Assembly (NCBI GenBank): GCA_017963805.1
Contig: JAGCTE010000015.1
Span: 122,350 to 186,349, forward strand
Direction of reading: 5' to 3'
Source: a bacterium
GTDB taxonomy: Bacteria; Auribacterota; UBA3054
DNA length: 64,000 bases
A model generated the notes under the pieces. It saw nothing but the letters and a program-made list of their open reading frames with translations, was not told the origin of the DNA and did no database searches. The translations under genes and the position numbers were made by a program. This document shows, piece by piece, positions 2,287-62,361 of this stretch (position 1 is the first letter of the stretch; every line of letters starts with the position of its first letter).

Positions 2287-3606
2287 ATGGAAGAGCTCAT
2301 CGAAGTCAGGCTCATTGCCGACCCAATCGTCTGCGACCAGCTTTCCGAACTTTGGGACGATCCCGAAGCCGATTTTTCCGTGGAAAAACTCACGGATTCT
2401 GAAAAGGCCGTTTTCAGTCTTTTTTTGAAAAGCGAGGAAGAAGCAAGCCGATCCGAAGCAAAGCTTCTTGCTCTCGCCAAGTTCCTGACCTCCGATCTTT
2501 CCTTGGAAAGAAGGATCGTCAAAAAAGAAGACTGGGCGGAGAAGTGGAAGGAAAATTTCCACGTCAGCAGAGTAGGGAAGAACCTCGTCATCGTGCCTTC
2601 CTGGGAGAATTACTCTCCTGAACCTAACGACATCATCCTCGTCAACGATCCCGGCATGGCCTTCGGCACAGGGAGCCACGGCACCAGCAAAGCCTGTTTG
2701 GAATTCCTTGAGGAACTCTCCTTAAAGAACCATCCCCAGAGTCTTCTGGACGCCGGCACCGGCACGGGCGTCCTGGCTGTCGCCGCCGCCAAATTAGGCA
2801 TCCCCGACATCGACGCCTTCGACAACGAGCCCCAGGCCGTCACGGCCGCCAAAGAAAACGCCGAAAAGAACAACGTCGAAATCAACGTTTTTCAGCAGGA
2901 TCTCTTTTTTTACGCCCCCAATAAGAAATACGATATAGTTATCGCCAACATTCTCTGCGCCGTCTTAGAGCGCAATGTGGAGCGCCTGATGGCCGCCGTG
3001 GCGCCCAACGGCCACCTCGTTTTGGCCGGCATCCTGGACGAGCAGTATCCCGCCCTCTCAGTGCTCTTCACAAGCCTTGGCGCCATAGAGCAAAGATCGA
3101 CGCTTATAGAAGGCTGGAGAACGGGCGTCTTCAAGCTTCCCGAAACGCCAAGGCCCATAGAGACCGTCCCGCAGACTGAACCCGAAATGGAAGAAGCGGC
3201 CGCTTGGTTCAGCGATAAGTGGCACATCCCCAAAAGCGCCTACATATCCAGTATGAAAGAGCCCAAGGACAACTACTGGTACGTCGTAAGGGATCCTGAA
3301 ACGAAAAAGATCATCGCCGGCGCCGGCGTCATTCCCAACGATTTCCACGCGAGGCCTGACCTCGCGCCCAACCTTTGCGCCCTTTTCGTGGAAGAGCCCT
3401 TCAGAAAGCGGGGACTGGCGGGCGCGCTTCTAAACCACATCGCCAGGGACATGCAGACAAAGGACTGCGGCACGCTTTACCTCGCCACCGAGCACACCTC
3501 TTTTTACGAACGCTACGGCTGGGATTTCTACACCTTCGTCAAGGAAAGCAATTCCGATCACATGACGAGACTTTACCGCCACGTATGGATGGACGAGCGA
3601 AAATAA
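2287..3606 (+). CDS. prmA: Ribosomal protein L11 methyltransferase PrmA fused to a C-terminal GNAT acetyltransferase-like domain
   Basis: 439 aa. Residues ~1-290 carry the PrmA motifs (DPGMAFGTGSHGTS, LDAGTGTGVLAVAAAKLG, DIVIANIL). Residues ~300-439 resemble a GNAT fold (RKRGLAGALLNHI...YERYGW). Confidence 0.75.
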   Translation: MEELIEVRLIADPIVCDQLSELWDDPEADFSVEKLTDSEKAVFSLFLKSEEEASRSEAKLLALAKFLTSDLSLERRIVKKEDWAEKWKENFHVSRVGKNLVIVPSWENYSPEPNDIILVNDPGMAFGTGSHGTSKACLEFLEELSLKNHPQSLLDAGTGTGVLAVAAAKLGIPDIDAFDNEPQAVTAAKENAEKNNVEINVFQQDLFFYAPNKKYDIVIANILCAVLERNVERLMAAVAPNGHLVLAGILDEQYPALSVLFTSLGAIEQRSTLIEGWRTGVFKLPETPRPIETVPQTEPEMEEAAAWFSDKWHIPKSAYISSMKEPKDNYWYVVRDPETKKIIAGAGVIPNDFHARPDLAPNLCALFVEEPFRKRGLAGALLNHIARDMQTKDCGTLYLATEHTSFYERYGWDFYTFVKESNSDHMTRLYRHVWMDERK

Positions 3607-3959
3607 ACCTTGCCGCCGCCGTTCTGGTCATATTGGCTGTAATTGCTTTTTTCTCCTTTGTTGATCCGACCGCGTCTCCGTTTTTTCCCCGCTGCTCCTT
3701 CCGCGCCCTCACCGGCTTCGACTGCCCGGGCTGCGGCACCTCCCGCGCGCTTCACAGCCTTGCGCACGGACATCTGATCGAAGCCTTCAGCTACAATCCC
3801 ATCCTCTTTCTGGCCATCCCCACCGTAATAATCCTCGTCTTCTCCAAGAGGGCCAGACGTTCCGTCGCGCTCCCCATCGTCGTCCTCGTCGTCATCCTGC
3901 TCTACTGGGTCATAAGAAACCTCCCGCAATTCCAGTCCCTCCTTCAGTCCCTCCGCTGA
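3585..3959 (+). CDS. DUF2752-like small membrane protein (CPGCG motif)
   Basis: About 124 aa counted from the internal Met (MDGRAKINL...). Has a TM helix, then FDCPGCGTSRALH. The long upstream part of ORF 3375..3959 overlaps prmA and is discounted. Confidence 0.55.
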   Translation: MDGRAKINLAAAVLVILAVIAFFSFVDPTASPFFPRCSFRALTGFDCPGCGTSRALHSLAHGHLIEAFSYNPILFLAIPTVIILVFSKRARRSVALPIVVLVVILLYWVIRNLPQFQSLLQSLR

Positions 3960-8688: not shown

Positions 8689-9432
8689 TTAAAAATTTTC
8701 CTGTTCGTTCTCTTCTTCCGCCGTCTCTTCACCGTCGCTCTTCAGGCTGTCCGTTTTGGAATAGAGCCTGGCGATCTCCTTGAAGGTGAGGACGTCCGGG
8801 CGGTAGCAGTGGATGCCCGGGAGGAATTCGTACATTACCTGCTGCTCGAGGCCTTCCGGCAGACGCTCGTCCTTTCCGACGTCCGCTTTTTCCTTCTGCT
8901 CGATGAAGCGGTATTTGATGAGCTTCGGGAAGAGCGTGCGGCAGGCGTCGACGATCGCTTTCTCGCTCGATTCGCCGTCCTCGAGCTCCTCGTTGAAACG
9001 GTTAAAGCAGTACTGCACAAAGTCGGAGATCAAAAAGCGCAGCCTCTTGTCGTCGTCGTAATTGGAGTTGAAGTCGCGGAGCAGCTTCTCGTAGAATTCC
9101 AAGAGCAGCATGAAGACCGAGCACTCGTCCCTTCTCGTCAGGTCGAACATGTCCCTTTGCGAAGGCTTAAGGGAATTGTTGTAGAGCTGCGGCTTGATTA
9201 TCCTCGCGGCCTGGCGGTCGACGTAGAGCTCCCAGCCGAAGTAGCGCATGAAGAAATGGCCGACGGCTTCCTGGTTCAATCTCAGGTAGGCGAAGAGATC
9301 CGGGTCGTCCGTCTGGTAGAAGAAGGGCGATTCGAGAAGAATGTTGAGAAGCGCCCTGACGCTGTGGATGTTCAGAGAATCGATCTGGTCGGAGTAATTC
9401 TCCGCTTCGTTTTCAAAGTATTGTTCGTTCAT
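8689..9432 (-). CDS. mksE: MksE/JetB-like (MukE-like) condensin subunit
   Basis: 247 aa, acidic, helical. The size and its position between the MksF-like and MksB-like genes match DUF4194-type MksE. Confidence 0.6.
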   Translation of the reverse strand: MNEQYFENEAENYSDQIDSLNIHSVRALLNILLESPFFYQTDDPDLFAYLRLNQEAVGHFFMRYFGWELYVDRQAARIIKPQLYNNSLKPSQRDMFDLTRRDECSVFMLLLEFYEKLLRDFNSNYDDDKRLRFLISDFVQYCFNRFNEELEDGESSEKAIVDACRTLFPKLIKYRFIEQKEKADVGKDERLPEGLEQQVMYEFLPGIHCYRPDVLTFKEIARLYSKTDSLKSDGEETAEEENEQENF

Positions 9433-11064: not shown

Positions 11065-11517
11065 TCATCTGCGGGAGGCAAAGAAATCCTTGAGAAGGTT
11101 CTCGCATTCAAGGGAGCAAAAGCCTTCCAGCACCTCGACTTTGCCGCCCGTCCAGGTGTTGGCGAGGTTGGCGTTCGACAAAAGGGCGCCCCTTTCCCAG
11201 TCGCGCGCTCCGAAAACGACGGTTTTGATTCTTGAGAGAAGAATGGCTCCGGCGCACATGGGGCAGGGCTCCAAGGTAACGTAAAGCGTGCAGTTGGTCA
11301 GGCGGCGGCCTAGCTTTTTTTGAGCCTCCTTTATGGCCAGGAGCTCCGCGTGGGCGGTGGCGTCTTTTTTCGCTTCTATAAGGTTGTGGGCGGAAGCGAC
11401 AACGCTGCCGTCCGCGTCAACGATGACGCAGCCAATGGGGACTTCGCCAATTGCGGCGGCCGCTTCGGCCTCTTCGATCGCCAGCAGCATGTGACCTTTG
11501 TGTTCCATGGAAAACAT
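11065..11517 (-). CDS. tadA: tRNA-specific adenosine deaminase
   Basis: 150 aa. Has the HAELLAI and PCPMCAGAI zinc-binding motifs. Confidence 0.9.
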   Translation of the reverse strand: MFSMEHKGHMLLAIEEAEAAAAIGEVPIGCVIVDADGSVVASAHNLIEAKKDATAHAELLAIKEAQKKLGRRLTNCTLYVTLEPCPMCAGAILLSRIKTVVFGARDWERGALLSNANLANTWTGGKVEVLEGFCSLECENLLKDFFASRR

Positions 11518-18475: not shown

Positions 18476-18530
18476 TTTTCTTTTACTTGATTTTTTTGTA
18501 TAATGTTTGCGGATAAAAAACGAGGTATTT

Positions 18531-20354
18531 ATGAGACGAATTATTAAATTTTCCCTTTTTCTTTCTTTAGTTTTCATGTCATATGTTTGCTTTGCAAACG
18601 AGGATATGGATTTTTCTTCAAACTTCGAAAAAGAAAAAGATCTGCTTGAACGGATAACGAAACTTCAGGCTCAAGTAAAAGACATAAAAGGGCAATACAT
18701 TTCAATAACTTCCCAATTGGAGAAGATACAGTTAAACATTCCTAAAGGACTTGTAAATTTTCCAGACCTTTTTGTCATTAATGATGACACGCTTGTTGTC
18801 GGGCCAGACGGGAATATATATTATGACGGATATGATGTAAGAAACGTTTTATGTTCTATAAACGGTTATTACGAAAGCGATAATTCAACAAACAATACTG
18901 AGCAAACAAGATCGGGATATGTTACGACTGAGCAATTTAATCAATTGGCTAGTCTTGTCTTTTCGTTAAGCGCCAATTGCCAGACGCTTAGCAATAATCT
19001 AAGTTCGATATCAAATACTGTTTACAATATTACTCAGCAAATGAGCATGATGGCGGCTACTGTACAGTATTTATCAACTCAGTGCGAAAATCTCAGTCAA
19101 AAATGTGACCTGATAGATTCTGCAATAGACATAAAAGACGACGGCAGGATAGTGATGAACGCCACATCTCCAATAATAGGAATCATTGAACCTAATTTCA
19201 CACCTTCACTTTATTCTTATCCTTCTATTTGGAGTTGGGATGGAATATGTACTAAATTTAACGTTTCGACTAACTCGCATTTGAAAAGCATAACTTTGTA
19301 TTGCAATGATATCAATAAAATAATGTCACCAGAAAGCGTTTACGTTTCTACTGGTGTTCCCAATAATGGCAGCTATCAAATGGCCTATTGGTACTGCAAT
19401 AGCGTAAATACCAATAGATTTCCTTTGTGTACTTACTCTTTTTCAAACCCAATCCTTATTAGGTCCGACAGGTTCCATTTATTAGGAATACGAAAAATAG
19501 GTAATAACCTTATATATCCATATGTTTGCAATGGATACAGGAATGGCGGATTGTACAAGCCTTATGGAGCAAACGAGTCTGAACTTCCGGTGAGGGGAGA
19601 TGATCCGCCTGATCCTGGACCTAGGGTTGGGCCATCAGATCCGCCTATGACATTGTCAGAATTTATGAACATGACATTTGAGTATTATTGGGAACCTTGT
19701 TTCGATTCATATGAGTTATGGTCTGTGTTCAATTTTGTTGAAGACGTCGGATTTACCTTTGATAAACACGGACTTGAATTGAAAAGCGGAGATATATCGA
19801 TTGCAGGAACTAGGGTTGTAACTGATGAAAGCCTTGGCGTAGCATTAACCAACAAAGCGGAAGTTTTAGGAGGGAAAATATCTTGGGATTCTTTTTGCCA
19901 AGGATTGAAAGATTATCTTATTACTGTTAACGGCGGAACAATAACTGGAGAATTGTACATTGAAGATCTAATTTTGCCTAACAATGGCAGTTGGCTTATA
20001 GGAAATGCCACGACTAGATCAGATATAAAAATTAACAATCCTAATGGATGCATAACGACATCTTCTGGTGATTTAAATTTGGCTTGCAATGGAGAAGATA
20101 CAAAAATAATTGCACATGATTTTGTGCAGTTTAGCGATTCAGAACAATGTGGGAAAGTGGTTATAAGTGCTGGTAGCACTTCTGTGTCAATTGCATCAGA
20201 TCTTTCTTCGGATGCAGTTGTAACTGTAACCCCCTCTCAACAAACAGATGTCAAATACTGGGTTGAAATCAACAGTCTAGGCGATGGATCGATAGTTATA
20301 GATGATAGAACAAACTGTGATTTGAGTTTCTTTTACATGATTATGAGAAAATAA
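18531..20354 (+). CDS. Island protein 1: secreted protein with an N-terminal coiled-coil and a beta-helix-like Cys-containing C-terminal region. A paralog starts at 62362
   Basis: About 607 aa from MRRIIKF. Has a signal peptide, then a heptad-like stretch LERITKLQAQVKDIKGQYISITSQLEKIQ, then short repeated beta-strand-like units. Confidence 0.55.
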   Translation: MRRIIKFSLFLSLVFMSYVCFANEDMDFSSNFEKEKDLLERITKLQAQVKDIKGQYISITSQLEKIQLNIPKGLVNFPDLFVINDDTLVVGPDGNIYYDGYDVRNVLCSINGYYESDNSTNNTEQTRSGYVTTEQFNQLASLVFSLSANCQTLSNNLSSISNTVYNITQQMSMMAATVQYLSTQCENLSQKCDLIDSAIDIKDDGRIVMNATSPIIGIIEPNFTPSLYSYPSIWSWDGICTKFNVSTNSHLKSITLYCNDINKIMSPESVYVSTGVPNNGSYQMAYWYCNSVNTNRFPLCTYSFSNPILIRSDRFHLLGIRKIGNNLIYPYVCNGYRNGGLYKPYGANESELPVRGDDPPDPGPRVGPSDPPMTLSEFMNMTFEYYWEPCFDSYELWSVFNFVEDVGFTFDKHGLELKSGDISIAGTRVVTDESLGVALTNKAEVLGGKISWDSFCQGLKDYLITVNGGTITGELYIEDLILPNNGSWLIGNATTRSDIKINNPNGCITTSSGDLNLACNGEDTKIIAHDFVQFSDSEQCGKVVISAGSTSVSIASDLSSDAVVTVTPSQQTDVKYWVEINSLGDGSIVIDDRTNCDLSFFYMIMRK

Positions 20355-20356
20355 AA

Positions 20357-22930
20357 ATGAGATTCATACCATTAAAAACAAAAATCATATTGATTTTTAT
20401 GGCATTAATGTGTTCGCTAATGATTTTCGCGGATAATGATCATTTTTATTATTACTATTGTTTTAATAGAAATTCTATGACTAATGTTGCCATGGGTTTC
20501 CCGTTTGGGATTTGTGAAATCATCCAAAGCAAATTATGGATTAAAGTGGAAGGTCAAGGACATTTACCTACATTTATAGCGAATGTACCGTTGGAGAACA
20601 AAACGGCGACTGATGTTATATATAATGACTCTCAGGGAAATGAATACTTTCCGGATCGTGATTTTAAATTAGTGTTTCAATGGGATCAGGTTGATTATGA
20701 AGACATAGAGGCTGAAGATGAAGTTAGAGGGGATATATTAAAAGAATATTATGAAGATCCAGCCATAACAATATTACACGATGTCGATATTTATTGTTTT
20801 ACCCCGAATTACACCGCATACTGTATTGAGATGGATAATAGCAGTAATGTTAAAATGGAAATATCTGATAATAATTTAAATTATGTGCCATGCACATTTA
20901 CAGATAATATAGAAACTACTATTGGATCTGGAAACAATCATAAAAGATATTACAAAACGGATTGGATTAGAAATCACAAGTATTATATAAAAGTCTATGG
21001 TCATGATGAAATTAACGATTATTATTCATCGGTACATGATTATAGTTTTACCATTAGAAGCGTTAAACCTATCGTATTAGTACATGGCATTAATTCGCAT
21101 CCTATAGATTCTAATGATAACAAGACAGCTTTTGAATGCATAAAAAAACATTTACCTAGAGCTGATGATCTTGACCCTATTTTACCTCTTGATTTTCCGT
21201 GGAATGATTCAGTGGGGGAATATACAGATTATTGTTTGAATGACAACTACTCTTTGTCAACTTTTATAAATAATAATTGTCAATATCTTGATAAAAAACC
21301 AATTGTGATTTCTCATTCGATTGGTGGCATGTTGATAATGAGACAAATTATTAATAACGATAACATATTGGGTAAAATTGACAAATTTATTTTTTATGGA
21401 ACTCCTTTTTGCGGTTCTGATAAAGCAAGCTGGTGGCTAACAAAAAATATACATATAACAAGCAACGATAATTTAAATCACCTTAAAAGGGGCTCTAAAC
21501 ACATTTGGAATTTGCTATCTAATATTCCGTCTTCATTCATCAATGATAAGCAGTCCACCTATTTTTATGGCAGCTCTGGATTTATGTTCTTCTTAGTATA
21601 TGGCGGTATTGATAGTGATAGCGTTGTATCTATTTCGTCTGCAAATTTGCCCGCAACTTTAGGTTTATCTTCTCTGGCAATATCCATTGACAAGAATCAT
21701 ACAGATATGAAGAAGTTATCATTCCCTTGTGAAGAAGAAGATTTGGTTGTATACAATATTTTAAAGGAATACATTAACGAATCTCCAGATAATAATACTG
21801 TAAATAATATATTTGATCCTTTATTGCGATTTTTTGGAGAATATAATTCCGCCATTGAACTACAAATGATTGATTATCACGATTTTGATTTTTATGAAAT
21901 TGAATATAGAGATTCAAATTCCGGAACGGAAGATTGGACAACATTAAGAATAGTTGAGGGTGATATTGAAAACAACTTAAACTATTATCATAGTGGAATT
22001 CTAAATTATGATAGCCAGCCAATTTTGATTAGATTAAAAAGTGATCATTTAGATAAAGTCAGTGATATACATTCTGTTAATATTAATGCTGGTAAAACGA
22101 CTTTTTTTAAAATGAAAATTATTAACGGAATTGCTGGCGATGATGTTATTTCACATTCTCTTAGTAATGATTCTTCTCTTCCGTTTTATAATATTCAGTT
22201 TCGTTTAAAAAATTTACCTAGACCTTGGATTAAATTCAAATTGTTGTCGCCCCCTAGACATCATAGAGAATCAAGACATTTAAATGTTAGATGGGAATGT
22301 GTTGATAATAGTAGATCTGGCGAAGACTATTCTATTTGGCTAGTTGTTGGATCGCAAAATAATAATGTTATTGATAGAATCAACGTTACAAATCTAACAT
22401 CCTATAATCTGAGCTTTTCCGATTACAATATGCCTCAAGGAGAGTATTGGTGGAAACTTGTTGCTGAGAATAATACAGATGATTTGGTTGAAAGCGAAAA
22501 GCGACCTTTTCATGTGGTAAATCAAGACTATTTTGATGACTCTGACGGAGATGGCTATGATGATTATGAAGAGTATATAAGGCACTCCAATCCGTATGAT
22601 GCAAACGACATTCCATTAATAATTGATTCTGGTGAAATCTGTCCCTTAGCATATTTAGATCAACAATACTTTTATAAAATAGAGACCAGTTTCAGAAATA
22701 ATATTTCATGGAGTTATAGAGGAAAGTTGCCAGAAGGAATAAAGCTAAGTCACAATGGAATTTTAAGCGGCATGTCAAAAGAACTTGGAACTTTTAATTT
22801 CACAATTCTTGTTTGCGGTCCTGGGCTAAAAGAAGATCAAATCAATATGACCTTGGAAACTTTAATACCACCAAATTCTGAAGTTACAACTGGAACTGGA
22901 TATTTTAAATCAGAAGGAGAAGAAGAATGA
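20357..22930 (+). CDS. Island protein 2: secreted multidomain protein with a lipase class-2/PGAP1-like alpha/beta-hydrolase core, an FN3-like segment, an EF-hand-like loop and a C-terminal putative-Ig (He_PIG-like) repeat
   Basis: 857 aa. Signal peptide. PIVLVHGINSHP (oxyanion region) and VISHSIGGMLI (nucleophile elbow) sit ~80 aa apart, as in Bacillus LipA. Also DSDGDGYDDYEE and LPEGIKLSHNGILSGMSKELGTFNFTI. Confidence 0.6.
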   Translation: MRFIPLKTKIILIFMALMCSLMIFADNDHFYYYYCFNRNSMTNVAMGFPFGICEIIQSKLWIKVEGQGHLPTFIANVPLENKTATDVIYNDSQGNEYFPDRDFKLVFQWDQVDYEDIEAEDEVRGDILKEYYEDPAITILHDVDIYCFTPNYTAYCIEMDNSSNVKMEISDNNLNYVPCTFTDNIETTIGSGNNHKRYYKTDWIRNHKYYIKVYGHDEINDYYSSVHDYSFTIRSVKPIVLVHGINSHPIDSNDNKTAFECIKKHLPRADDLDPILPLDFPWNDSVGEYTDYCLNDNYSLSTFINNNCQYLDKKPIVISHSIGGMLIMRQIINNDNILGKIDKFIFYGTPFCGSDKASWWLTKNIHITSNDNLNHLKRGSKHIWNLLSNIPSSFINDKQSTYFYGSSGFMFFLVYGGIDSDSVVSISSANLPATLGLSSLAISIDKNHTDMKKLSFPCEEEDLVVYNILKEYINESPDNNTVNNIFDPLLRFFGEYNSAIELQMIDYHDFDFYEIEYRDSNSGTEDWTTLRIVEGDIENNLNYYHSGILNYDSQPILIRLKSDHLDKVSDIHSVNINAGKTTFFKMKIINGIAGDDVISHSLSNDSSLPFYNIQFRLKNLPRPWIKFKLLSPPRHHRESRHLNVRWECVDNSRSGEDYSIWLVVGSQNNNVIDRINVTNLTSYNLSFSDYNMPQGEYWWKLVAENNTDDLVESEKRPFHVVNQDYFDDSDGDGYDDYEEYIRHSNPYDANDIPLIIDSGEICPLAYLDQQYFYKIETSFRNNISWSYRGKLPEGIKLSHNGILSGMSKELGTFNFTILVCGPGLKEDQINMTLETLIPPNSEVTTGTGYFKSEGEEE

Positions 22931-25323
22931 AACTAGGCAAATCTTTAGTTATTGTTATTTTTTTGTTGATATTAAGCGCTTGGTCAACATCAAATTCTTA
23001 TTTAAATAAATACCCTGGCATAGTTGCTATAACTACCAAAAGTGGAAATGCATTATTCGGAAAAAGGGACGAGAACAAAATTTTCCTTAACAAGGGGGAT
23101 CTTTATGAGGAATGCGATGGATGCGGATATATATACGAAAAATACGGTTTTATAGATGACATGACCAGAAGTTTTATTAAAGAAAATATCGAGCCGTCTA
23201 GAACGCCGTATAAAAATGTTAATAAGGAGTTGGAAAAACAATATGATGATTTTCAATCCGTAATCAGAAGTAAAAAACTGCCCGATAATTGGGTTGATAA
23301 CCCGGAAGGTCGTTATCAGTCTATTAAAGAAGGACTTTTAAGGGAGATCGATCGTTTGAAGGTATCCGGAAATTCCAAAGCAGACGAAAAGATAAAACAG
23401 CTAAAGGCAGAATATGCCTTTTATACGAACCGATATAGCGATTCAAAAATATTTGAAAAAATATCAGATCCTGACTTTGACCTTGATCAGGATGGATTAA
23501 CCAATTTGGAAGAATTCTACTGTCAGTCAGACCCTCTTGTCAGAAGCGGGCTTGCCGTATCTCCGGCTTTTTATAAATTTACTCTTAACGACAGTCTTGT
23601 TTACACCGGTAAATTCAGTATTGCAAATTTGACAAACACCAACAGGACATATTCTATTTACAGTAGATATCAAAGTTCTGATAATCGTTATGCTCCCAAA
23701 ATCGTACCGCTAAATTCTAAATTTTGCGTAGATAAAAATGGTTATATGGTGTTTAACATACCTCCAAAATCGAAGCAGTATTTTTTGTATCTGTTAAATG
23801 CTGAATATCTACCTTATTGTTTTGGCAATCTTTATAGTGTCAGCGTAAGGATTAAAAACGATTTGGGATTTATGGGGACGGATCTTGGAAATGTAGTTTT
23901 TTATATGTTTGGCAACAAGGGGTCCGAGATTTCAAAGACGGATAATCTTTATCCGAAATCCGGCGCAAGATTACAGCCGGAGAACAATACTCTTTCATTT
24001 ATATGGAAATCTGGTGAGCGCAATATTTCGAAGAATAGAGAGGAAGAGATAAGGTATGTTATACAGTTTTATAATGCGGATAAAAAAATGGCTTTTGATT
24101 ATTTCTGTTTTACAAACAAGTTTTTTGCTCCGGCTAAGAATGATCTCAATACTTTCTCGCCAGGCATTTATTTTTGGAGAATCATAAAGCAAGATGCATT
24201 CAGCGCCCCTGCTTGTTCAGATTGGAATTGGTTCTCCATAGGGAAAAAAGCAGACGAAGGCTGCTCAAATACATTGGAAAAAGGAAAGAGATTAATTCCG
24301 GAGAAAAAATATAATTGTGGAATAGCCTATTACGATATGTATAAAGGAATTCCATTTGATTTTGATATTTGTCCGCTGAAAGCTTCTGAAAAACAACCTT
24401 TCATTTACAAACTTCCAAAAGATTTTGAATGTTTTTTCGATGACAATTATTGGCATTTAAAGGGAACCCCTCATGAAGTCGGAAGATGGACAAACATGTG
24501 GTTCCGTATTAAGGCGGATAGGGCCTGGACTAACATTTGTGTTTTTAGTGTTTATGATCCTGCCGAAGAGATTTTGTCGCGTTCTTTTTACGATTTGGGT
24601 AAGAAAGCTGTTGTTCATGATTTAACAGTTGATTATCGATTCGAATATCCATTGCAAAGTTATTTTGATATCATTTCTAAAACTTCTGATACCGTTTTAA
24701 GCAAAGATTATTCTGTCAAGATCTCACCAGATCTTCCGGATGGATTGACTTTATCATTTGAAGACGGAAGATATATCATATCCGGTATTCCTAAAAATGT
24801 CGGCGAGTTTATTGCAGAAATAACTTATGAAAAGGATAATTTGCTCAAAGAAAAGCATATTTTTAATATACGCACAAGCAAAAATCCCAAGCCGCTTACT
24901 TTTGCCGAAGAGTGGAATGTCGTTTACCTAAGCGAAGAACCTTGGGGGCATTACCAATATTTCATGGTGGGGTTTAAAAAAGGAATGGTCAGGCATATTT
25001 TGAGCGATGAAAAAAGTGTCAGATATCCTTTATCTCTAGATTATCTAGCGTATGGGAGAAAACGTATTATGCTTGATTCTTATGAAACTAGTTTTGGACA
25101 AAAGAGGAGAGCATATAAAAAGCACGACGAAAATCAGCAGGAAGTAGAATTGTTATCGCCTCTCCCCAACGGCATAAGGTTAGAAGAAAGCGACGGCAAA
25201 TTTTACCTTGAATGTGAATTGCGTTCAGTTGGAGCTTTTACGAATCTTATCAGGATAGTCAGTCAAGATGGCGTATATACAAACATGCATATTTTCAGAG
25301 TAGAAAAAGTAAAAACCCAATAA
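22927..25323 (+). CDS. Island protein 3: secreted protein with an EF-hand-like loop and several putative-Ig (He_PIG-like) repeats
   Basis: 798 aa. Signal peptide. Its start overlaps the gene 2 stop (ATGA). Has DLDQDGLTNLEE, and repeats LPDGLTLSFEDGRYIISGIPKNVGEF and LPNGIRLEESDGKFYLECELRSVGAF. Confidence 0.5.
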   Translation: MKLGKSLVIVIFLLILSAWSTSNSYLNKYPGIVAITTKSGNALFGKRDENKIFLNKGDLYEECDGCGYIYEKYGFIDDMTRSFIKENIEPSRTPYKNVNKELEKQYDDFQSVIRSKKLPDNWVDNPEGRYQSIKEGLLREIDRLKVSGNSKADEKIKQLKAEYAFYTNRYSDSKIFEKISDPDFDLDQDGLTNLEEFYCQSDPLVRSGLAVSPAFYKFTLNDSLVYTGKFSIANLTNTNRTYSIYSRYQSSDNRYAPKIVPLNSKFCVDKNGYMVFNIPPKSKQYFLYLLNAEYLPYCFGNLYSVSVRIKNDLGFMGTDLGNVVFYMFGNKGSEISKTDNLYPKSGARLQPENNTLSFIWKSGERNISKNREEEIRYVIQFYNADKKMAFDYFCFTNKFFAPAKNDLNTFSPGIYFWRIIKQDAFSAPACSDWNWFSIGKKADEGCSNTLEKGKRLIPEKKYNCGIAYYDMYKGIPFDFDICPLKASEKQPFIYKLPKDFECFFDDNYWHLKGTPHEVGRWTNMWFRIKADRAWTNICVFSVYDPAEEILSRSFYDLGKKAVVHDLTVDYRFEYPLQSYFDIISKTSDTVLSKDYSVKISPDLPDGLTLSFEDGRYIISGIPKNVGEFIAEITYEKDNLLKEKHIFNIRTSKNPKPLTFAEEWNVVYLSEEPWGHYQYFMVGFKKGMVRHILSDEKSVRYPLSLDYLAYGRKRIMLDSYETSFGQKRRAYKKHDENQQEVELLSPLPNGIRLEESDGKFYLECELRSVGAFTNLIRIVSQDGVYTNMHIFRVEKVKTQ

Positions 25324-25337
25324 TTTTACGGGCTTTT

Positions 25338-25682
25338 TTACTTGAAAATAAAGTAGCAGGCGGCCACCATGCAGAGGGCGGCGTAGAGGAAGTTCCAGGA
25401 AACTTTCTCTTTCATGATGAAGATCGCGAAGGGAACGAAGACGGAGAGAGTGACGATCTCCTGGGTGATCTTCATCTGCATCAGGGTCAGCGACTGGTTG
25501 CCGAAGCGGTTGGCCGGGATCATGATGCTGTATTCGAAGAAGGCTATTATCCAGCTTGTTAGAATGGCGAGGAAAACAGGGGCGTCCGCTTTGTTCTTCA
25601 AATGGTAGTACCAAGCGAAGGTCATGAAGATGTTGGAGAGGACGAGCATGGAGGCGTAGAGGAAAAAATGGGCGAATTTCAT
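25338..25682 (-). CDS. Small DMT-superfamily-like membrane protein (DUF486-like)
   Basis: 114 aa and wholly hydrophobic, with about 4 predicted TM helices. Confidence 0.45.
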   Translation of the reverse strand: MKFAHFFLYASMLVLSNIFMTFAWYYHLKNKADAPVFLAILTSWIIAFFEYSIMIPANRFGNQSLTLMQMKITQEIVTLSVFVPFAIFIMKEKVSWNFLYAALCMVAACYFIFK

Positions 25683-30898: not shown

Positions 30899-32067
30899 TT
30901 GTAGATGTTGAGCTTTTTGATCCTTTCCACCGCTTCGAGGAGTCTTTCCTTGGGAGCGGTCAAAGTCATTCTTATGTAGCCTTCGCCGGAGGGGCCGAAG
31001 CCGTTGCCGGGCGTAGCCACGACCGCCGCTTCTTTCAAGAGCTTCATGGTGGTCTCCTTGCTGGTCATGCCTTTGGGAACCGGCGCCCAGACGTAGAAAG
31101 CGGCCTGGCTCGGCTTCACGGGGCAGCCCAGAGCCTGCAGGCCTTTCACCAGCGCGTCCCTTCTCTCCTGGTAAGTCCTGAGCAGCTCCTCGCGCCAACT
31201 CTGGTCGCCCGTCAGCGCTTCCACGGCAGCGTCCTGGACGGCGCCGAAGATGCCGGAGTCCAAGTTGCCCTTGATGCGGGAGAGCCCGGCCACAAGGGAG
31301 GGGTTGCCCACCGCGAAGGCCACTCTCCAGCCGGTCATGTTGTAAGTCTTGGAGAGCGAGTAGTACTCCACGCAGTATTCCTTGGCGCCTTCCACTTCCA
31401 AAAAGGAGTGGGGCTTGATGCCGTCGTAGTAGACGTCGGCGTAGGCCGCGTCGTGGGCGATGATGATATTGTATTTCTTTGCGAAATCCAGGGCTTTCTT
31501 GTAGAAGCTAAGAGGCGCTGTGACGGCGATGGGGTTGTTGGGGTAGCACAGGAACATCATCTTCGCCCTTTGCGCGATCTCTTCCGGGATAGCGTCAAGG
31601 TCGGGGAGATAATCGTTCTCTTCCTTCAAAGGCATGTAGTACGTTTCCGCGTCCGCGAAAAGCGTGCCGGAATGATAGACCGGATATCCCGGTTCCGGAA
31701 CGAGGACTATGTCGCCGGGGTTGACGAAAGCAAGGTGGATGTGCCCGATGCCTTCCTTGGAACCAAGAAGCGGCATGATCTCGGTGTTGGGGTCAAGAGT
31801 CACGCCGAAACGCGTCTTGTAATAGGCGGCGCAGGCTTCCCTAAGCGTCTGCTTGCCGTTATCAAGGGCGTACTGATGGTTGGCCGGGTTCAGCGCGGCC
31901 TTCCTCAAAGCCTCCACGATATGCGGCGGAGTGGGCAGGTCGGGGTCGCCAACGCCCAAATTGATGACGTCGGCGCCGGACTTTTTCAGTTCGCTCTTCA
32001 GGGCGTCGATCTCTTTGAAGAGATACGGCGGCAGAAGAGAAAGTCTTTTTGAAAGTGGAAAATCCAT
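30895..32067 (-). CDS. Class I/II PLP aminotransferase (LL-diaminopimelate aminotransferase DapL-like)
   Basis: 390 aa. Has GVGDPDLPTP, YPNNPIAV and SLSKTYNMTGWRVAF (PLP-lysine region). Confidence 0.7.
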   Translation of the reverse strand: MDFPLSKRLSLLPPYLFKEIDALKSELKKSGADVINLGVGDPDLPTPPHIVEALRKAALNPANHQYALDNGKQTLREACAAYYKTRFGVTLDPNTEIMPLLGSKEGIGHIHLAFVNPGDIVLVPEPGYPVYHSGTLFADAETYYMPLKEENDYLPDLDAIPEEIAQRAKMMFLCYPNNPIAVTAPLSFYKKALDFAKKYNIIIAHDAAYADVYYDGIKPHSFLEVEGAKEYCVEYYSLSKTYNMTGWRVAFAVGNPSLVAGLSRIKGNLDSGIFGAVQDAAVEALTGDQSWREELLRTYQERRDALVKGLQALGCPVKPSQAAFYVWAPVPKGMTSKETTMKLLKEAAVVATPGNGFGPSGEGYIRMTLTAPKERLLEAVERIKKLNIYK

Positions 32068-32124
32068 TTTGTTCCTTTATTATTCGGTTATTTATGAAAT
32101 TATATCATAACCGCCCTTGCTTAG

Positions 32125-32322
32125 TCGCGAACGCGGCATATACCCCTCGCTCACGGACTACGCGTGAAGTGCGCGCCAGCACATATCCCCCGCTCACGGA
32201 CTACGCGTGCATGGCCTTGATTTGCGTCCTCCGTGAGTTCGCTTGGGGATATGTGCTTAGCGCGCACTGCAAATTACTTGCGTCCTCCGTGAGTTCGCTT
32301 AGGGGTATATGCCGCGTTCGCA
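32125..32322. repeat. ~200-bp nearly perfect nested palindrome (long hairpin) in a divergent intergenic region
   Basis: Outer arms GCGAACGCGGCATATACCCCT and AGGGGTATATGCCGCGTTCGC. Inner arms AGCACATATCCCC and GGGGATATGTGCT. CGCTCACGGACTACGCGTG is repeated twice on one side, with imperfect reverse complements on the other. Confidence 0.7.
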
Positions 32323-32388
32323 CTCGACTCCGCGGCCGCAGGCCAATTTGTTATAATGTTATGGATAACCAACCGAATGGATTGACGA

Positions 32389-33356
32389 TGAGGAAGATTT
32401 CTTTGCTCATGGCGCTCTGCGTATCTATGGCTGTTTTGTCGGCGCAGGCCGTGATCGATCTTAAGGGGAAACTCAGGATAGAAGTGCTGGACGAGGAAAA
32501 CGGTTCGCCTGTCCCGGGCTATGAGTTTTCCGTCAGCGAGGATTACAACCACACCAAGATCATTTCCACGGTCAAAACTGATATCAACGGCTGGGGTTGG
32601 GGCAAAAAGCTGAAACCCGGCGAATACTACATCTTCAACAGCGGGACTTCCGGCGGCTACGCTCCCTACGAAGGCGGCGGAGCTTTCTCTTTCCCCGCGG
32701 CCGGCACTTCCATGGTCTTCAAAGTCAAAAGCGGCAACAAGGCCGCGCTGATAGATCCGCCGGGATCGGAGTGCACTTTGAAGATGTCGGCCATTGTTAC
32801 GGACGAGACGCTGGGAAGGATAGATGCCGACAGCGAGCACAGATTTTTCGTCAGCTGCAAAGGCAACATCTTTTCCGATGGCTTCTGCATTATTCCTAAG
32901 GGCTCCGACGGATATTTGAAAGGCAAGGACATAAGCTTGAATTTCAAGCGCAAAAAAACCACGCTGACTTTCAAGATCGGCCCGGCTTACGCGAACAATT
33001 ATTTCAATTTGGGAACTTATTCTGAAGACACCCCCTTTGTCGAGGAACTGCTTCCGGTAAATAATTTCTCCGGAAAAAACACCAACGTTCACAACCAGGA
33101 CAAAGATCCTTTCAACAACAGCACGGTGACCTTCCGCCACGGCTGGGTCAAGGAACCGGCAATGCTCGGAGGCATGAGTTTCAAATTTACCGACAAGGGC
33201 AGCCAGTATTCCTGCGATGAAACCACGACTGTGGAAGGAATGAAAGTCACGCTCAAGGCTTCCGTTGGCAAGAAGAATCACAAACTTAAACTGACCATGA
33301 AGGCTTATGACTGCATAGGCTGCAATTTCCGGTTTACGAAAAACGAAGACAAATAA
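32389..33356 (+). CDS. Hypothetical secreted protein
   Basis: Starts at the internal Met (MRKISLLMALCVSMAVLSAQA, a signal peptide). The long upstream extension of ORF 32049..33356 runs through the palindrome and is discounted. Confidence 0.5.
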
Positions 33357-59712: not shown

Positions 59713-62247
59713 ATGAAACGAATCCTTATTCTTTTAGCGCTCCTTTCCTTCGCCGCCTCCAATCTGGCCTTTTCCGATACCCTCTATCGGGAAGATTTCG
59801 AAGCGTATGAAGTGGGAACGCAGATGACAGATCAGGAAGGCTGGGACTTCTACAGCACCTACACCGGCAACAGCACGGTTGTGACCAACGCTCCCAATAT
59901 CGAGGGCAAAGCCATGATCCTTTCTCCCTCCGCGACCGGTCACGACGAATACGTCATGGTATTGACGCCGAGCGTTGATCTTACGACGCCCAATGCGGCG
60001 GCCAATCTGGTCACCGTCAGCGCCAAAGTCATAATGGCCAGCAGCATCGATCTTTTCGCCATCTATGACAAGGACATGAACCGCTACTTCTATCTGAAGG
60101 GCGACCGCAGCAACGGTACGCTGGAAAGCTACCCCTCCGGCGTCGTTTTCAGCAACCTCTACACCGACGCGACGACCCCCGACGAGATCGCTTTCGTTTG
60201 GGATCCCTTCGAACAGAAGGTCGTAAAGGTCTCCTGCAACGGCGAGGAAAAGGAATGCAGCATTCTGCCCAGCGGCACTTGCGCTCAGCCTTCCAGGCTG
60301 CGCCTTTCCCTGCAGCACACTTCCTTGGACGGCGCCGAGGGCACTTACTACGATTATGTGGACGTTTCCTATTCGCCCCGTTCCGCCGATCCTATGCTTT
60401 ACTGCCCTGAAGACGCGCTCATCCCGCTGGATGCCGAAAGCGTTGAATTCGAGATCTACAACGCCGGGCCGGACACCACCACCATCAACTACTCCATCAC
60501 CACGTCCAGCGATTGGCTGAGCGTCACTCCGACTAGCGGCTCATTCAACGAATCCGCAGTCCTGACTCTCAAAGCCGCGGAAGGTTTGGAAGAAGGCTTT
60601 TACCGCGGCACCATGACCGTTGACGGCGGCGAGGCCGGAACGAAAGTTGTTTCCGTCATGTGCTCCAACGGCAACGTTATTTTCGAGGAGAATTTCGACG
60701 ACATGACGCCCGGCAACATCGTCGGCCAGCGCGGCTGGACGGTGGACGTCGGCAACGTCAGCGTCACCAACGCCTACGACTGCTCCGGCAACTGCATGTT
60801 CATGCACCGCTGCGGCGGCAGCTACGCCTGCAGCATGTACCTGCCGAAACCCTGGTATGAAAACATCATCGTCAAGGTCAGCTACGACCTCTACTGGCCC
60901 AGCGACAGCAACTGCGACGACTCCTACGTTCTCATGAAGGACAACGGCCAGAACGAAAAGTTCGAAGGCCAGTTCATGCCCACCTATCCCGACGGCCTCG
61001 GCATCAAGATGATCAAGAGAAGCAACAAGGACGGCAGCGAGCAGGAAAAACGCGTCAAAGATTTCCCGCTCTCTCCTTTTGACACCTGGAACAGGGTGGA
61101 ATACTGCCTTGACCTGCAGAGCCAGAAGCTTCTCTATTTCTCAATGGGCGAGAACGTCACAAACTTCGTCGACTGGCCCTTGATGAACCAGGGCTGTAAC
61201 TTCTTCAACTCCTGGGGCCACTCCGCCTGGAACGGCGTAGACAACGGCAGCCGCGTGGCGGTCGACAACCTTAGGATCGAAAGAGTGCCCAGGGAAGCCG
61301 ATCCCGAGCTGGTGGTTGACAAATTTGTTTCCATCGGAGTCGACGACGGCATAGTTTACAGCGTCCGCAACGGCGGCGCCGGCAGCTTCGACTTCACGGC
61401 GGAAGTCCTCGACCTCGACGACGCCGTCACCTTAAGCCAGACCAGCGGCACGGTGGAAAGCTCCGTCGACATCGACGTCTCGGTCAACAGGGAAGTTTTG
61501 GAAGACAACTACTACAGGTTCAGAGTCAGAGTGGACGCCGGGGAAGCCGGCTGCTCCACCACCATCTTCGCCTTCGTCAGTGGCACCGTCTATTACTTCG
61601 CCGACTTTGAGGAGCCGTTCTTCACGCTGGGCGACTTTGCCGGCCAGGATGAATGGGTGGACGACAACGGCGGCGAAAACATTGCCTACATCTGCTCCAC
61701 CAACGACCAGCAGTCCCTTTATATGGAACACGGCGGCAACTGGGGCGGCTTTATGCACTCCCTCGAAGTGCCGGCCAACAGCATGGTGAGATTCGACATG
61801 GATCTGTTCATTCCGCCCGCTCTCTTCGACGATCCCGAGTGGATGGACCAGACCGTACTCTATCTCAAGCAGAACAGCAAAAGAACGCCTTCGAAGGAAC
61901 TGATGCTTAACATCACTTCCGTGGACGGCGTCCCGTATGTCTACGCTACCGCCAAAGACTACGACATGACGTTCTGCGAAACGGAATACGCTTACGAATG
62001 GATGCACGTCTCGTATGTCATCGACTACCTCCAGGGCCTGGTGACCGAAGTCACGATCGACGACAACACCTTCGTTACCGATGAACTGGTCACCGAAGAC
62101 GCCGGCGTGCCCTGCACCCTGTTCTGCCTGTGCGGCTCTTACGGCGCCAATCTGACCTTCGACAACGTCAAGGTCTCGGTCGTTCCCGAACCGGCCGCGC
62201 TCGTCGCGCTCATCGCGCTTCTGGCCCTCGGCATTCGCCGCAGATAA
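59713..62247 (+). CDS. PEP-CTERM surface protein (paralog 4 of 4)
   Basis: 844 aa. Module starts YREDFEAYEVGTQMTDQEGW, FEENFDDMTPGNIVGQRGW and YYFADFEEPFFTLGDFAGQDEW. C-terminus VPEPAALVALIALLALGIRRR. Confidence 0.8.
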   Translation: MKRILILLALLSFAASNLAFSDTLYREDFEAYEVGTQMTDQEGWDFYSTYTGNSTVVTNAPNIEGKAMILSPSATGHDEYVMVLTPSVDLTTPNAAANLVTVSAKVIMASSIDLFAIYDKDMNRYFYLKGDRSNGTLESYPSGVVFSNLYTDATTPDEIAFVWDPFEQKVVKVSCNGEEKECSILPSGTCAQPSRLRLSLQHTSLDGAEGTYYDYVDVSYSPRSADPMLYCPEDALIPLDAESVEFEIYNAGPDTTTINYSITTSSDWLSVTPTSGSFNESAVLTLKAAEGLEEGFYRGTMTVDGGEAGTKVVSVMCSNGNVIFEENFDDMTPGNIVGQRGWTVDVGNVSVTNAYDCSGNCMFMHRCGGSYACSMYLPKPWYENIIVKVSYDLYWPSDSNCDDSYVLMKDNGQNEKFEGQFMPTYPDGLGIKMIKRSNKDGSEQEKRVKDFPLSPFDTWNRVEYCLDLQSQKLLYFSMGENVTNFVDWPLMNQGCNFFNSWGHSAWNGVDNGSRVAVDNLRIERVPREADPELVVDKFVSIGVDDGIVYSVRNGGAGSFDFTAEVLDLDDAVTLSQTSGTVESSVDIDVSVNREVLEDNYYRFRVRVDAGEAGCSTTIFAFVSGTVYYFADFEEPFFTLGDFAGQDEWVDDNGGENIAYICSTNDQQSLYMEHGGNWGGFMHSLEVPANSMVRFDMDLFIPPALFDDPEWMDQTVLYLKQNSKRTPSKELMLNITSVDGVPYVYATAKDYDMTFCETEYAYEWMHVSYVIDYLQGLVTEVTIDDNTFVTDELVTEDAGVPCTLFCLCGSYGANLTFDNVKVSVVPEPAALVALIALLALGIRRR

Positions 62248-62271
62248 ACCGGCATAATCAAAAACCGAAAC

Positions 62272-62309
62272 AAAAAAAGGCGGAGGAATTTTTCCTCCGC
62301 CTTTTTTTG
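62272..62309 (+). terminator. Rho-independent terminator
   Basis: GGCGGAGGAATTTTTCCTCCGCC followed by TTTTTTT. Confidence 0.65.
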
Positions 62310-62310
62310 T

Positions 62311-62339
62311 TTGACATTTTTGGAGAAACATTATACAAT
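62311..62339 (+). promoter_or_regulatory. Near-consensus sigma70 promoter (TTGACA, 17-nt spacer, TACAAT) driving the second copy of island gene 1
   Basis: Hexamers and spacer read directly. AAAGGAG sits 8 nt before the ATG at 62362. Confidence 0.55.
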
Positions 62340-62361
62340 AATAGAGAAAGGAGTGGCTATT

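Follow-up and report, generated by a model that had tools for sequence, protein, structure and literature searches.

A nested palindrome in an Auribacterota contig as a probable composite of two dispersed hairpin repeats

Short palindromic sequences that recur between bacterial genes have been described in several forms. Miniature inverted-repeat transposable elements (MITEs) derived from insertion sequences, such as the Correia elements of Neisseria, are bounded by conserved terminal inverted repeats and duplicate their target site (TA in the case of Correia), and the autonomous insertion sequences IS1397 and ISKpn1, which carry a transposase, insert into the loops of palindromic units. RAYT proteins are Y1 HuH transposases whose genes are usually flanked by their repeats. 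The ERIC or IRU sequences of enterobacteria are reportedly imperfect palindromes of ~100-130 bp with a conserved central inverted repeat; they are said to occur in tens of extragenic copies per genome and to have longer forms with internal additions, and we know of no transposase for them. In the REPINs of Pseudomonas fluorescens SBW25, which are associated with RAYT transposases, invariant 16-mers stand at both ends of the hairpin and a variable, paired spacer with compensatory changes lies in the middle (PMC3116915), and a preprint gives copy numbers of up to hundreds per genome (bioRxiv 10.1101/119743). Here we analyse a near-perfect nested palindrome of ~195 bases at positions 32127-32321 of a 64,000-nucleotide stretch, hereafter the window, of contig JAGCTE010000015.1 (assembly GCA_017963805.1; Auribacterota, UBA3054; forward-strand positions 122,350 to 186,349). 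We consider it probable that this palindrome combines two members of a dispersed and hitherto uncatalogued family of hairpin-forming extragenic repeats, non-autonomous in nature, and that it is a passenger at this locus.

Architecture and fold of the palindrome

The palindrome was read from the sequence and delimited with a repeat finder over 31900-32560. It consists of one full unit in the apical loop of another, an L-L-R-R architecture on the + strand that is alike in the orthologous loci L007, L039 and L078. The outer unit opens with the left stem arm GCGAACGCGGCATATACCCCT (32127-32147), whose 21 nt are 100% complementary to the right stem arm AGGGGTATATGCCGCGTTCGC (32301-32321; repeat-finder pair I1), and continues with the L arm of a conserved core, CGCTCACGGACTACGCGTG (32148-32166), which is invariant outside the loop among 80 standard units; the matching R arm, GCGTCCTCCGTGAGTTCGCT, occupies 32280-32299. 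Between them lies the complete inner unit (32169-32267), made up of the left stem GTGCGCGCCAGCACATATCCCC (32169-32190), an L arm (32191-32209), the canonical 14-nt apical loop CATGGCCTTGATTT (32210-32223), an R arm (32224-32243) and the right stem GGGGATATGTGCTTAGCGCGCAC (32245-32267). A covariance model of the unit, R1, matches here at 32164-32272 with 113.7 bits on the + strand and 31.9 on the - strand. Reading the sequence against the single-unit locus L060 and the nested locus L078 also identifies what is left of the outer loop, namely AA at 32167-32168 and TGCAAATTACTT at 32268-32279, which together total 14 nt, the canonical loop length.

A first-pass annotation, made from the sequence without database searches, had described exactly complementary outer and inner arms with duplicated units at this place, and the repeat finder recovered every part that it listed. 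The inner arms (32178-32190 and 32245-32257) are 13 nt long and 100% complementary, the left unit GCAYATAYCCCYCGCTCACGGACTACGCGTG, which ends in CGCTCACGGACTACGCGTG, is present twice with a period of 43 (32136-32166 and 32179-32209), and the right unit TTGCGTCCTCCGTGAGTTCGCTT occurs in two identical copies with a period of 56 (32222-32244 and 32278-32300). The annotation was also right that no other place in the window has this architecture, as the arms were found nowhere else in the 64 kb with up to 3 mismatches (0 expected by chance) and the palindrome was the sole match of the covariance model. Only its coordinates need slight amendment, since it had placed the palindrome at 32125-32322 instead of 32127-32321 and the start of the downstream gene at 32389 instead of the ATG at 32388.

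The predicted fold of the region is one long interrupted hairpin, in agreement with the long hairpin proposed at first. As RNA, the + strand folds with -131 kcal/mol compared to -76.4 ± 4.2 for shuffled sequences (z = -12.9) and the - strand with -132.1 compared to -77.1 ± 4.7 (z = -11.7), while as DNA the + strand reaches -81.1 kcal/mol compared to -37.9 ± 3.4 (z = -12.8). In none of the three foldings did any shuffle attain the observed energy.

A dispersed family and the anatomy of its unit

The 19-mer CGCTCACGGACTACGCGTG was scanned against one genome per species (596 Gb), yielding 39 loci. Thirty-six of these are on different contigs of seven ruminant-gut metagenome-assembled genomes (MAGs) from rumen, omasum and jejunum, with 12 in RGIG3546, 6 each in RGIG7086, RGIG8200 and UBP3_UBA3054, 4 in RGIG9704, and 1 each in RGIG9765 and RGIG7520. 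At the other 3, in unrelated MAGs, nothing of the unit matched beyond the 19-mer, and we read them as chance, given that ~4 chance matches are expected in 596 Gb by our own arithmetic. A metagenome scan with the 20-mer GCGTCCTCCGTGAGTTCGCT gave 55 loci, at most 5 of them on one 306-kb contig, and from this density we estimate a copy number of tens per genome. The host of the family is a clade of uncultured ruminant-gut bacteria whose MAGs are labelled RGIG... and UBP3_UBA3054. The palindrome had no blastn match in 5,426 E. coli genomes (28 Gb) or in plasmids and phages, and a 17-mer gave 3 matches in viral contigs, all of which the covariance model rejected as chance, so that no true copy was found there. 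Rfam 15 contains no curated family for it: a scan of the whole window gave no match at the gathering score, and relaxing the threshold to E up to 10 for 31900-32600 brought up nothing but noise.

A unit of the family measures ~100 nt. It runs from a ~22-nt left stem through the L arm CGCTCACGGACTACGCGTG, a 14-nt loop with the consensus CATGGCCTTGATTT, the R arm GCGTCCTCCGTGAGTTCGCT and 1-2 unpaired bases to the complementary right stem. The 53-nt apical core formed by CGCTCACGGACTACGCGTG, the loop and GCGTCCTCCGTGAGTTCGCT is asymmetric and almost invariant, and it stands on a stem of ~22 bp. Its L and R arms pair imperfectly, with 8 bp, a 2x2 internal loop and 4 bp, and there are extra TT and CTT bases on the 3' side only. 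Every copy shows the same mismatches, which gives the unit a defined strand; the covariance model gives ~110 bits forward and ~30 bits in reverse. Among 87 non-identical units, entropy is ~0 in the core outside the loop, 1-2 bits at the stem positions, and 1.7-2.0 bits at the unit ends, which are the most variable part.

The stem, in turn, changes in sequence while remaining paired. Pairing is kept in 94.2% of stem cells; it falls to 82.1 ± 0.6% after shuffling and to 25-53% if one partner is displaced by 1-3 columns. Changes on both sides of a pair affect 152 cells, compared to 49.9 ± 7.5 in shuffles, and compensatory changes are found in 15 of the 17 stem pairs. The inner stem varies almost only through paired transitions (C-G to U-A, A-U to G-C), which indicates descent from a common GCATATACCCC-like ancestor. 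Moreover, identical full-length stems recur at non-orthologous loci of a single genome (for example L023 and L027, or positions 400 and 1613 of L035), and thus the stem belongs to the repeated unit. These two observations together led us to reject, as a general rule, the idea that the variable stems are pre-existing palindromes such as terminators that were entered by a bare core. An inference on which strand is folded from the balance of G.T and A.C mismatches (18 vs 35) was set aside, as the inherited mismatch of one subfamily dominates that count.

The family has the general features of REP sequences, being short, extragenic, dispersed and hairpin-forming with compensatory changes. REPINs and ERIC are closest to it. 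As in REPINs, two conserved inverted sequences form a non-coding hairpin of ~100 nt in single-stranded DNA or RNA, the less conserved part stays paired through compensatory changes, and inheritance is apparently mostly vertical. The layout is reversed, however: the apical centre is invariant and the paired base is variable, and no invariant ends like those of REPINs were found. Furthermore, the L and R arms are not small palindromes themselves, the copies number tens per genome where the preprint gives up to hundreds for REPINs, and a single-sequence query found no RAYT in the searched flanks of ~100 copies. ERIC is matched in architecture only (a central inverted repeat, extragenic position, tens of copies and no known enzyme), whereas there is no sequence similarity in the 5,426 E. 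coli genomes and the host lineage is different; to our knowledge, neither self-nesting in the apical loop nor frequent in-place inversion has been described for ERIC. Correia MITEs are likewise small, non-coding, palindromic and dispersed, can lie near promoters or terminators, and can be nested, but in the present family the termini are the most variable part, with neither the conserved inverted repeats of a parent insertion sequence nor any other conserved terminal motif in the ends and flanks of the units, and no target-site duplication was seen. Of the 'REP/MITE-like element' that had been offered as one option at first, the dispersed repeat is therefore borne out by the scatter of the arms over many contigs of several related genomes, while the terminal repeats and target duplication of a strict MITE and the conserved ends of a REPIN are not there. 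The family is a new one of the REP/ERIC/REPIN kind, and its interest lies mainly in the reversed REPIN layout with a conserved tip and a covarying base, in its self-nesting, and in the contrast in conservation between core and stem.

Nesting, gene context and the question of mobility

Fully or partly nested units occupy ~20 of ~109 sites (~18%; site counts include orthologous redundancy), and the outer loop remnants in these sites sum to 13-17 nt, near the 14 nt of the canonical loop. As hairpin tips are a tiny share of intergenic DNA, this frequency points to a strong bias towards them. New copies appear to favour extragenic hairpins that are already there, landing in the single-stranded tip. 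IS1397 and ISKpn1 do likewise in the loops of palindromic units, although what is inserted in the present family is a further copy of the hairpin. Judged by eye alone, the unit at L028 seems to sit within the loop remnant of a different hairpin family.

Gene context was determined with our own heuristic codon-usage caller of open reading frames (ORFs), and spacers of at least 40 nt in the same loci were used for comparison. Forty-five element sites are between convergent genes, 37 between tandem genes and 8 between divergent genes, compared to 59, 110 and 36 spacers overall, respectively. Copies are therefore mostly at the 3' ends of genes, with half of the sites between convergent genes, where the stems usually abut the stop codons (median gap ~20 nt). 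At tandem sites the orientation of the unit relative to transcription is unbiased (14 same, 17 opposite). Of 86 units, 28 have a run of at least four A in the left arm and 29 a run of at least four T in the right arm, compared to 10 and 5 in the reverse-polarity controls. By this pattern about a third of the units look like bidirectional intrinsic terminators, with an A-run on the left and a T-run on the right of a G+C-rich hairpin, and the filling of convergent spacers adds to the likeness. Ordinary terminators of this type, in contrast, share no long conserved core. In addition, the window copy is flanked by divergent genes and is devoid of T-runs; a terminator scan found none in 32127-32321.

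Two further arrangements were observed at gene ends. Units lie directly 3' of what appears by eye to be the end of a tRNA or tmRNA gene (...GGTTCAAGTCCG...CTCCA) in L015 (4659-4768), L021 (7052-7161) and L034 (6461-6701), the last with two tandem units, and at this shared position the stems are almost wholly different between species while the core is unchanged. In L043 (2168-11303), four tandem paralogous genes of ~800 aa have hairpin units between them (rll at 3667, LR at 8731 and LRrl at 11332).

To follow the unit at fixed positions, 25 orthologous pairs were taken from L001-L094 and the window, requiring at least 75% identity in both flanks and a mean flank identity below 93%. Identity is 0.86 in the flanks, 0.78-0.79 in the stems, 0.86 in the apical loop and 0.983 in the L and R arms. 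Seven of the 25 pairs, the window and L078 among them, have the unit inverted relative to its flanks, which suggests that in-place inversion is frequent, a flip-flop by exchange between the arms. L043 and the near-identical strain at L090 differ by a partial deletion of one unit, with no empty site. Several other loci that seemed to lack the core were artefacts of extrapolation over insertions nearby.

Based on these data, we propose that the unit would be a non-autonomous element, and that a sequence-specific factor acting in trans would recognise it by its conserved apical hairpin in single-stranded nucleic acid that has folded. Recognition of the folded strand and not of the duplex is suggested by the conserved mismatches and bulges on one arm. 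Preferential entry into single-stranded hairpin loops would give rise to nesting, and copies would persist where they are harmless or useful, that is, between convergent genes, where the many with A-run and T-run arms could serve as bidirectional terminators or 3'-end stabilisers. The window copy would be a passenger in an untranscribed spacer between two divergent promoters, and its main local effect may be to render the region prone to inversion and rearrangement. A more elaborate version is that the asymmetric apical module is protein-recognised and under selection, staying ~98% identical between species at each locus while the stem is free to drift as long as it pairs, and that the unit enters hairpin tips and inverts by arm exchange through a single-strand-specific protein other than a RAYT, making it an 'inverse REPIN' that is retained by the host and acts also as a terminator and a driver of rearrangement; we regard this as speculative and, taken as a whole, rather unlikely.

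The main alternative to a mobile element is a module with a function for the host, either a bidirectional terminator or an mRNA 3'-end hairpin, whose core docks a lineage-specific RNA- or DNA-binding protein and whose copies arise rarely, by duplication or conversion. The 98.3% identity of the arms in orthologous pairs, compared to 86% in the flanks and 78% in the stems, is the signature expected of selection at each locus, and the near-constant occupancy of orthologous sites, the abundance of stems abutting stop codons between convergent genes, the A-run/T-run polarity in a third of units and the lack of a transposase in the searched flanks of the copies all speak for it. However, a core that is asymmetric, yet randomly oriented at tandem sites and flipped in 7 of 25 orthologues, sits badly with a strand-specific RNA ligand. 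U-tracts are absent from two thirds of units, and copies are found in promoter spacers as well, as in the window. Furthermore, the 18% of self-nested sites would require insertion or duplication aimed at hairpin tips, and the identical full-length stems at non-orthologous loci indicate that copies have been made. We give such a host module a lesser but substantial chance of being correct.

It should be noted that a number of results weigh against a mobile, non-autonomous element as well. In the flanks of 44 units there is no direct repeat indicative of a target-site duplication, and no signal beyond a weak tendency to a C before and a T after the unit. Neither a clean empty site nor a whole-unit insertion polymorphism was found among 94 loci, and nearly all orthologous sites examined still hold a unit, an occupancy that fits old, vertically inherited and possibly immobile elements under selection as well as it fits mobile ones. 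A phmmer search with the single sequence of E. coli RayT (E up to 10) had no match in the six-frame ORFs of ~780 kb flanking ~100 sites and of the window, regular expressions for HuH and Y motifs gave only chance matches, in aminotransferase, in the ~780 kb around ~100 copies, and all-against-all clustering of the flanking proteins yielded no recurrent neighbour besides orthologues. No parent element with L and R arms around a gene was seen either. At the locus of the window, the flanks of L060, with a single unit and a canonical loop, and of L078, with a nested pair and a non-canonical outer loop, are near-identical; the step from single to nested was thus no simple insertion into a loop there, and replacement, conversion or a double deletion is needed. 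The complementarity of the arms could come from hairpin-templated repair (template switching) in the absence of selection. The terminator role is suggested by a sequence pattern, which the two thirds of units devoid of U-tracts, the window's included, do not share. Finally, the sequences used for comparison all come from short-read MAG or metagenome assemblies, in which palindromes are error-prone.

The window locus, its relatives and its surroundings

The palindrome is flanked on the left by dapL, the gene for LL-diaminopimelate aminotransferase (PF00155; 30895-32067, - strand), and on the right by a gene for a secreted protein with a SpaA prealbumin-like domain (32388-33356, + strand), in which a signal peptide (MRKISLLMALCV...) comes after the ATG at 32388. 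The mechanical ORF list also has an ORF of 435 aa (32049-33356) that starts with TTG and extends through the whole palindrome. It was rejected as a spurious N-terminal extension of the SpaA-domain gene, and recognition of the repeat keeps it from being called a gene. Each gene is preceded by an extended -10-like box outside the element with a putative promoter role, TGATATAAT (TGaTATAAT; 32099-32107, - strand) for the aminotransferase gene and TGTTATAAT (TGtTATAAT; 32349-32357, + strand) for the SpaA-domain gene. A consensus promoter scanner omitted both boxes because they have no -35 hexamer. The aminotransferase-side box is kept as TGRTATAAT in L060, L073, L078 and the element-free L097, and the SpaA-side box TGTTATAAT is kept in L026, L060, L073 and L078; both are candidate promoters that match the consensus, in an uncharacterised lineage. 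Since the conserved boxes lie between the element and each gene, the element appears to be upstream of both promoters, and the window copy is probably untranscribed upstream DNA for both genes. It is an atypical member of its family in that it lies between divergent promoters. It has no A-run/T-run arms.

The relatives of the window differ at this locus in number and orientation of units. L073 and L060 have a single unit and L078 a nested pair, all in the orientation opposite to the window's, while L007 and L039 have a nested pair in the same orientation. In L097, where the aminotransferase is 86% identical and the HPPK-Rnf synteny is the same, there is no unit and the TGGTATAAT box is kept. 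The outer stem of L060 and L078 contains an A.C mismatch, CATATAC opposite GTACATG, which is ancestral at this locus and was repaired in different ways, by a change of the right arm from GTACATG to GTATATG in the window and of the left arm from CATATAC to CATGTAC in L007.

The flanks of the element themselves form a degenerate, older inverted duplication. Its left arm (32056-32126) pairs with its right arm (32322-32395; repeat-finder pairs I4 and I10) with a score of 25, compared to 8.2 ± 3.4 in shuffles, none of 500 scoring as high. Both -10 boxes lie inside it. Three features of the aminotransferase side, namely its promoter-like box, an ATAACC motif and the opening bases of the gene, have mirror images upstream of the SpaA-domain gene, and the last of these persists in the right arm as ATGGATT, a vestige of the aminotransferase start.

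Two related species, RGIG7086 and RGIG9765, have at this locus a gene of low GC content that encodes a secreted protein of 821 aa and is bracketed by the nested element on one side and by a truncated copy of it in inverted orientation on the other (L039 7810-8000 with L026 1-2880, and L007 5426-8000). The first copy is followed on its right by ten bases that form the reverse complement of the left flank in L078, and hence it is an inverted duplicate of flank and element. The 821-aa gene has 66% DNA identity to the third gene (22927-25323) of a low-GC island in the window (18481-25341; GC 0.32-0.41 compared to ~0.56 elsewhere). This island carries three large secreted ORFs of 615, 857 and 798 aa and is precisely absent in RGIG7086, where L039 goes directly from the equivalent of window position 18480 to that of 25342. 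Neither the 821-aa protein nor the island proteins have a Pfam family above cut-off, and all carry signal peptides, so that they are not transposases.

Arrangements such as that of the 821-aa gene raise the question of whether the element is a recombination site at the boundaries of gene cassettes, an analogue of integron attC sites whose folded hairpins would insert and excise accessory genes. Similarly, L023 has a permease gene between inverted units that L001 does not have, and in L004 a hairpin unit has beside it an inserted gene with an ORF6N domain (2337-3365; Pfam E = 4.7e-34) that is absent from the four orthologous loci L036, L071, L084 and L089; the bulged bases on one arm are also reminiscent of the extrahelical bases of attC. 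Integron attC sites, though, carry conserved R''/R' boxes (RYYYAAC ... GTTRRRY) at the ends of a variable centre and lie next to a cassette array with an integrase. The present units have the opposite layout, with variable ends free of any GTTRRRY-like box and a conserved centre, and no integrase or recombinase recurs beside the copies among the flanking proteins. Most units, moreover, lie between ordinary convergent housekeeping genes, and the repeat was not found at the borders of the low-GC island. We therefore consider a cassette-boundary site very improbable.

The position of the element, exactly between two divergent promoters and with its edges near the expected -35 positions, would also suit an operator array, which had been among the first proposals. 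The half-site CTCACGGA/TCCGTGAG is present four times, twice directly and twice inverted, and could offer four binding sites for a regulator of the aminotransferase and SpaA-domain genes. Against this, the core recurs at ~100 other sites, mostly between convergent genes of unrelated function, close relatives differ at this very locus in the number (2 or 4) and orientation of such sites, some having only a single or a flipped unit, and L097 retains the dapL promoter box without any element. This explanation is accordingly very improbable.

The same small chance is all that we assign to a structured RNA transcribed from the spacer, whether a 5' leader, as had been put forward at first, a riboswitch-like element or a small RNA gene. 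The very stable predicted fold on both strands and the covariation in the stem are what such an RNA would show, but on either side a conserved -10 box is found downstream of the element, between the palindrome and the start codon. In addition, Rfam gave no match even at E up to 10, the orientation of units is unbiased relative to transcription, the relative at L097 has no element at this locus, and a near-perfect duplex of ~95 bp is less usual in ligand-binding RNAs than in DNA palindromes or substrates of RNase III. A purely local structure, produced by palindrome amplification through template switching or by misassembly, has next to no probability: palindromes are prone to fold-back duplication and misassembly, and the flanks are an older inverted duplication, but the unit is found at ~100 unrelated loci in independent assemblies of several host species, and the same nested structure is present in four independently assembled relatives.

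The element is thus most probably not a gene-specific leader or operator, and explaining the palindrome as a member of a repeat family averts its annotation as a leader, an operator or a small RNA. Beyond this locus, an uncultured ruminant-gut lineage gains a well-delimited repeat family, represented by a covariance model and ~90 distinct copies and showing three behaviours that can be measured: self-nesting, in-place inversion (7 of 25 orthologous pairs) and association with local rearrangements. The contrast between core arms (98%) and stems (78%) at orthologous sites makes the question of whether these repeats are selfish or domesticated directly testable.

The same genomes contain other families of hairpin repeats, which have an alternating purine-pyrimidine stem ending in CCC/GGG and a different conserved core. 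The core of one of these, family B, is GTAAGCAAACTTAGCGAAGCCTGTTTGCCAA, and it occurs in L020, L022, L033, L012, L023, L035 and L037. Family C (L019, L027, L030, L036 and L038), which has CATGAG and AATTAC variants, is sister to the main family. A second low-GC stretch, with a GC content of 0.41, lies at the end of the window (62001-64000).

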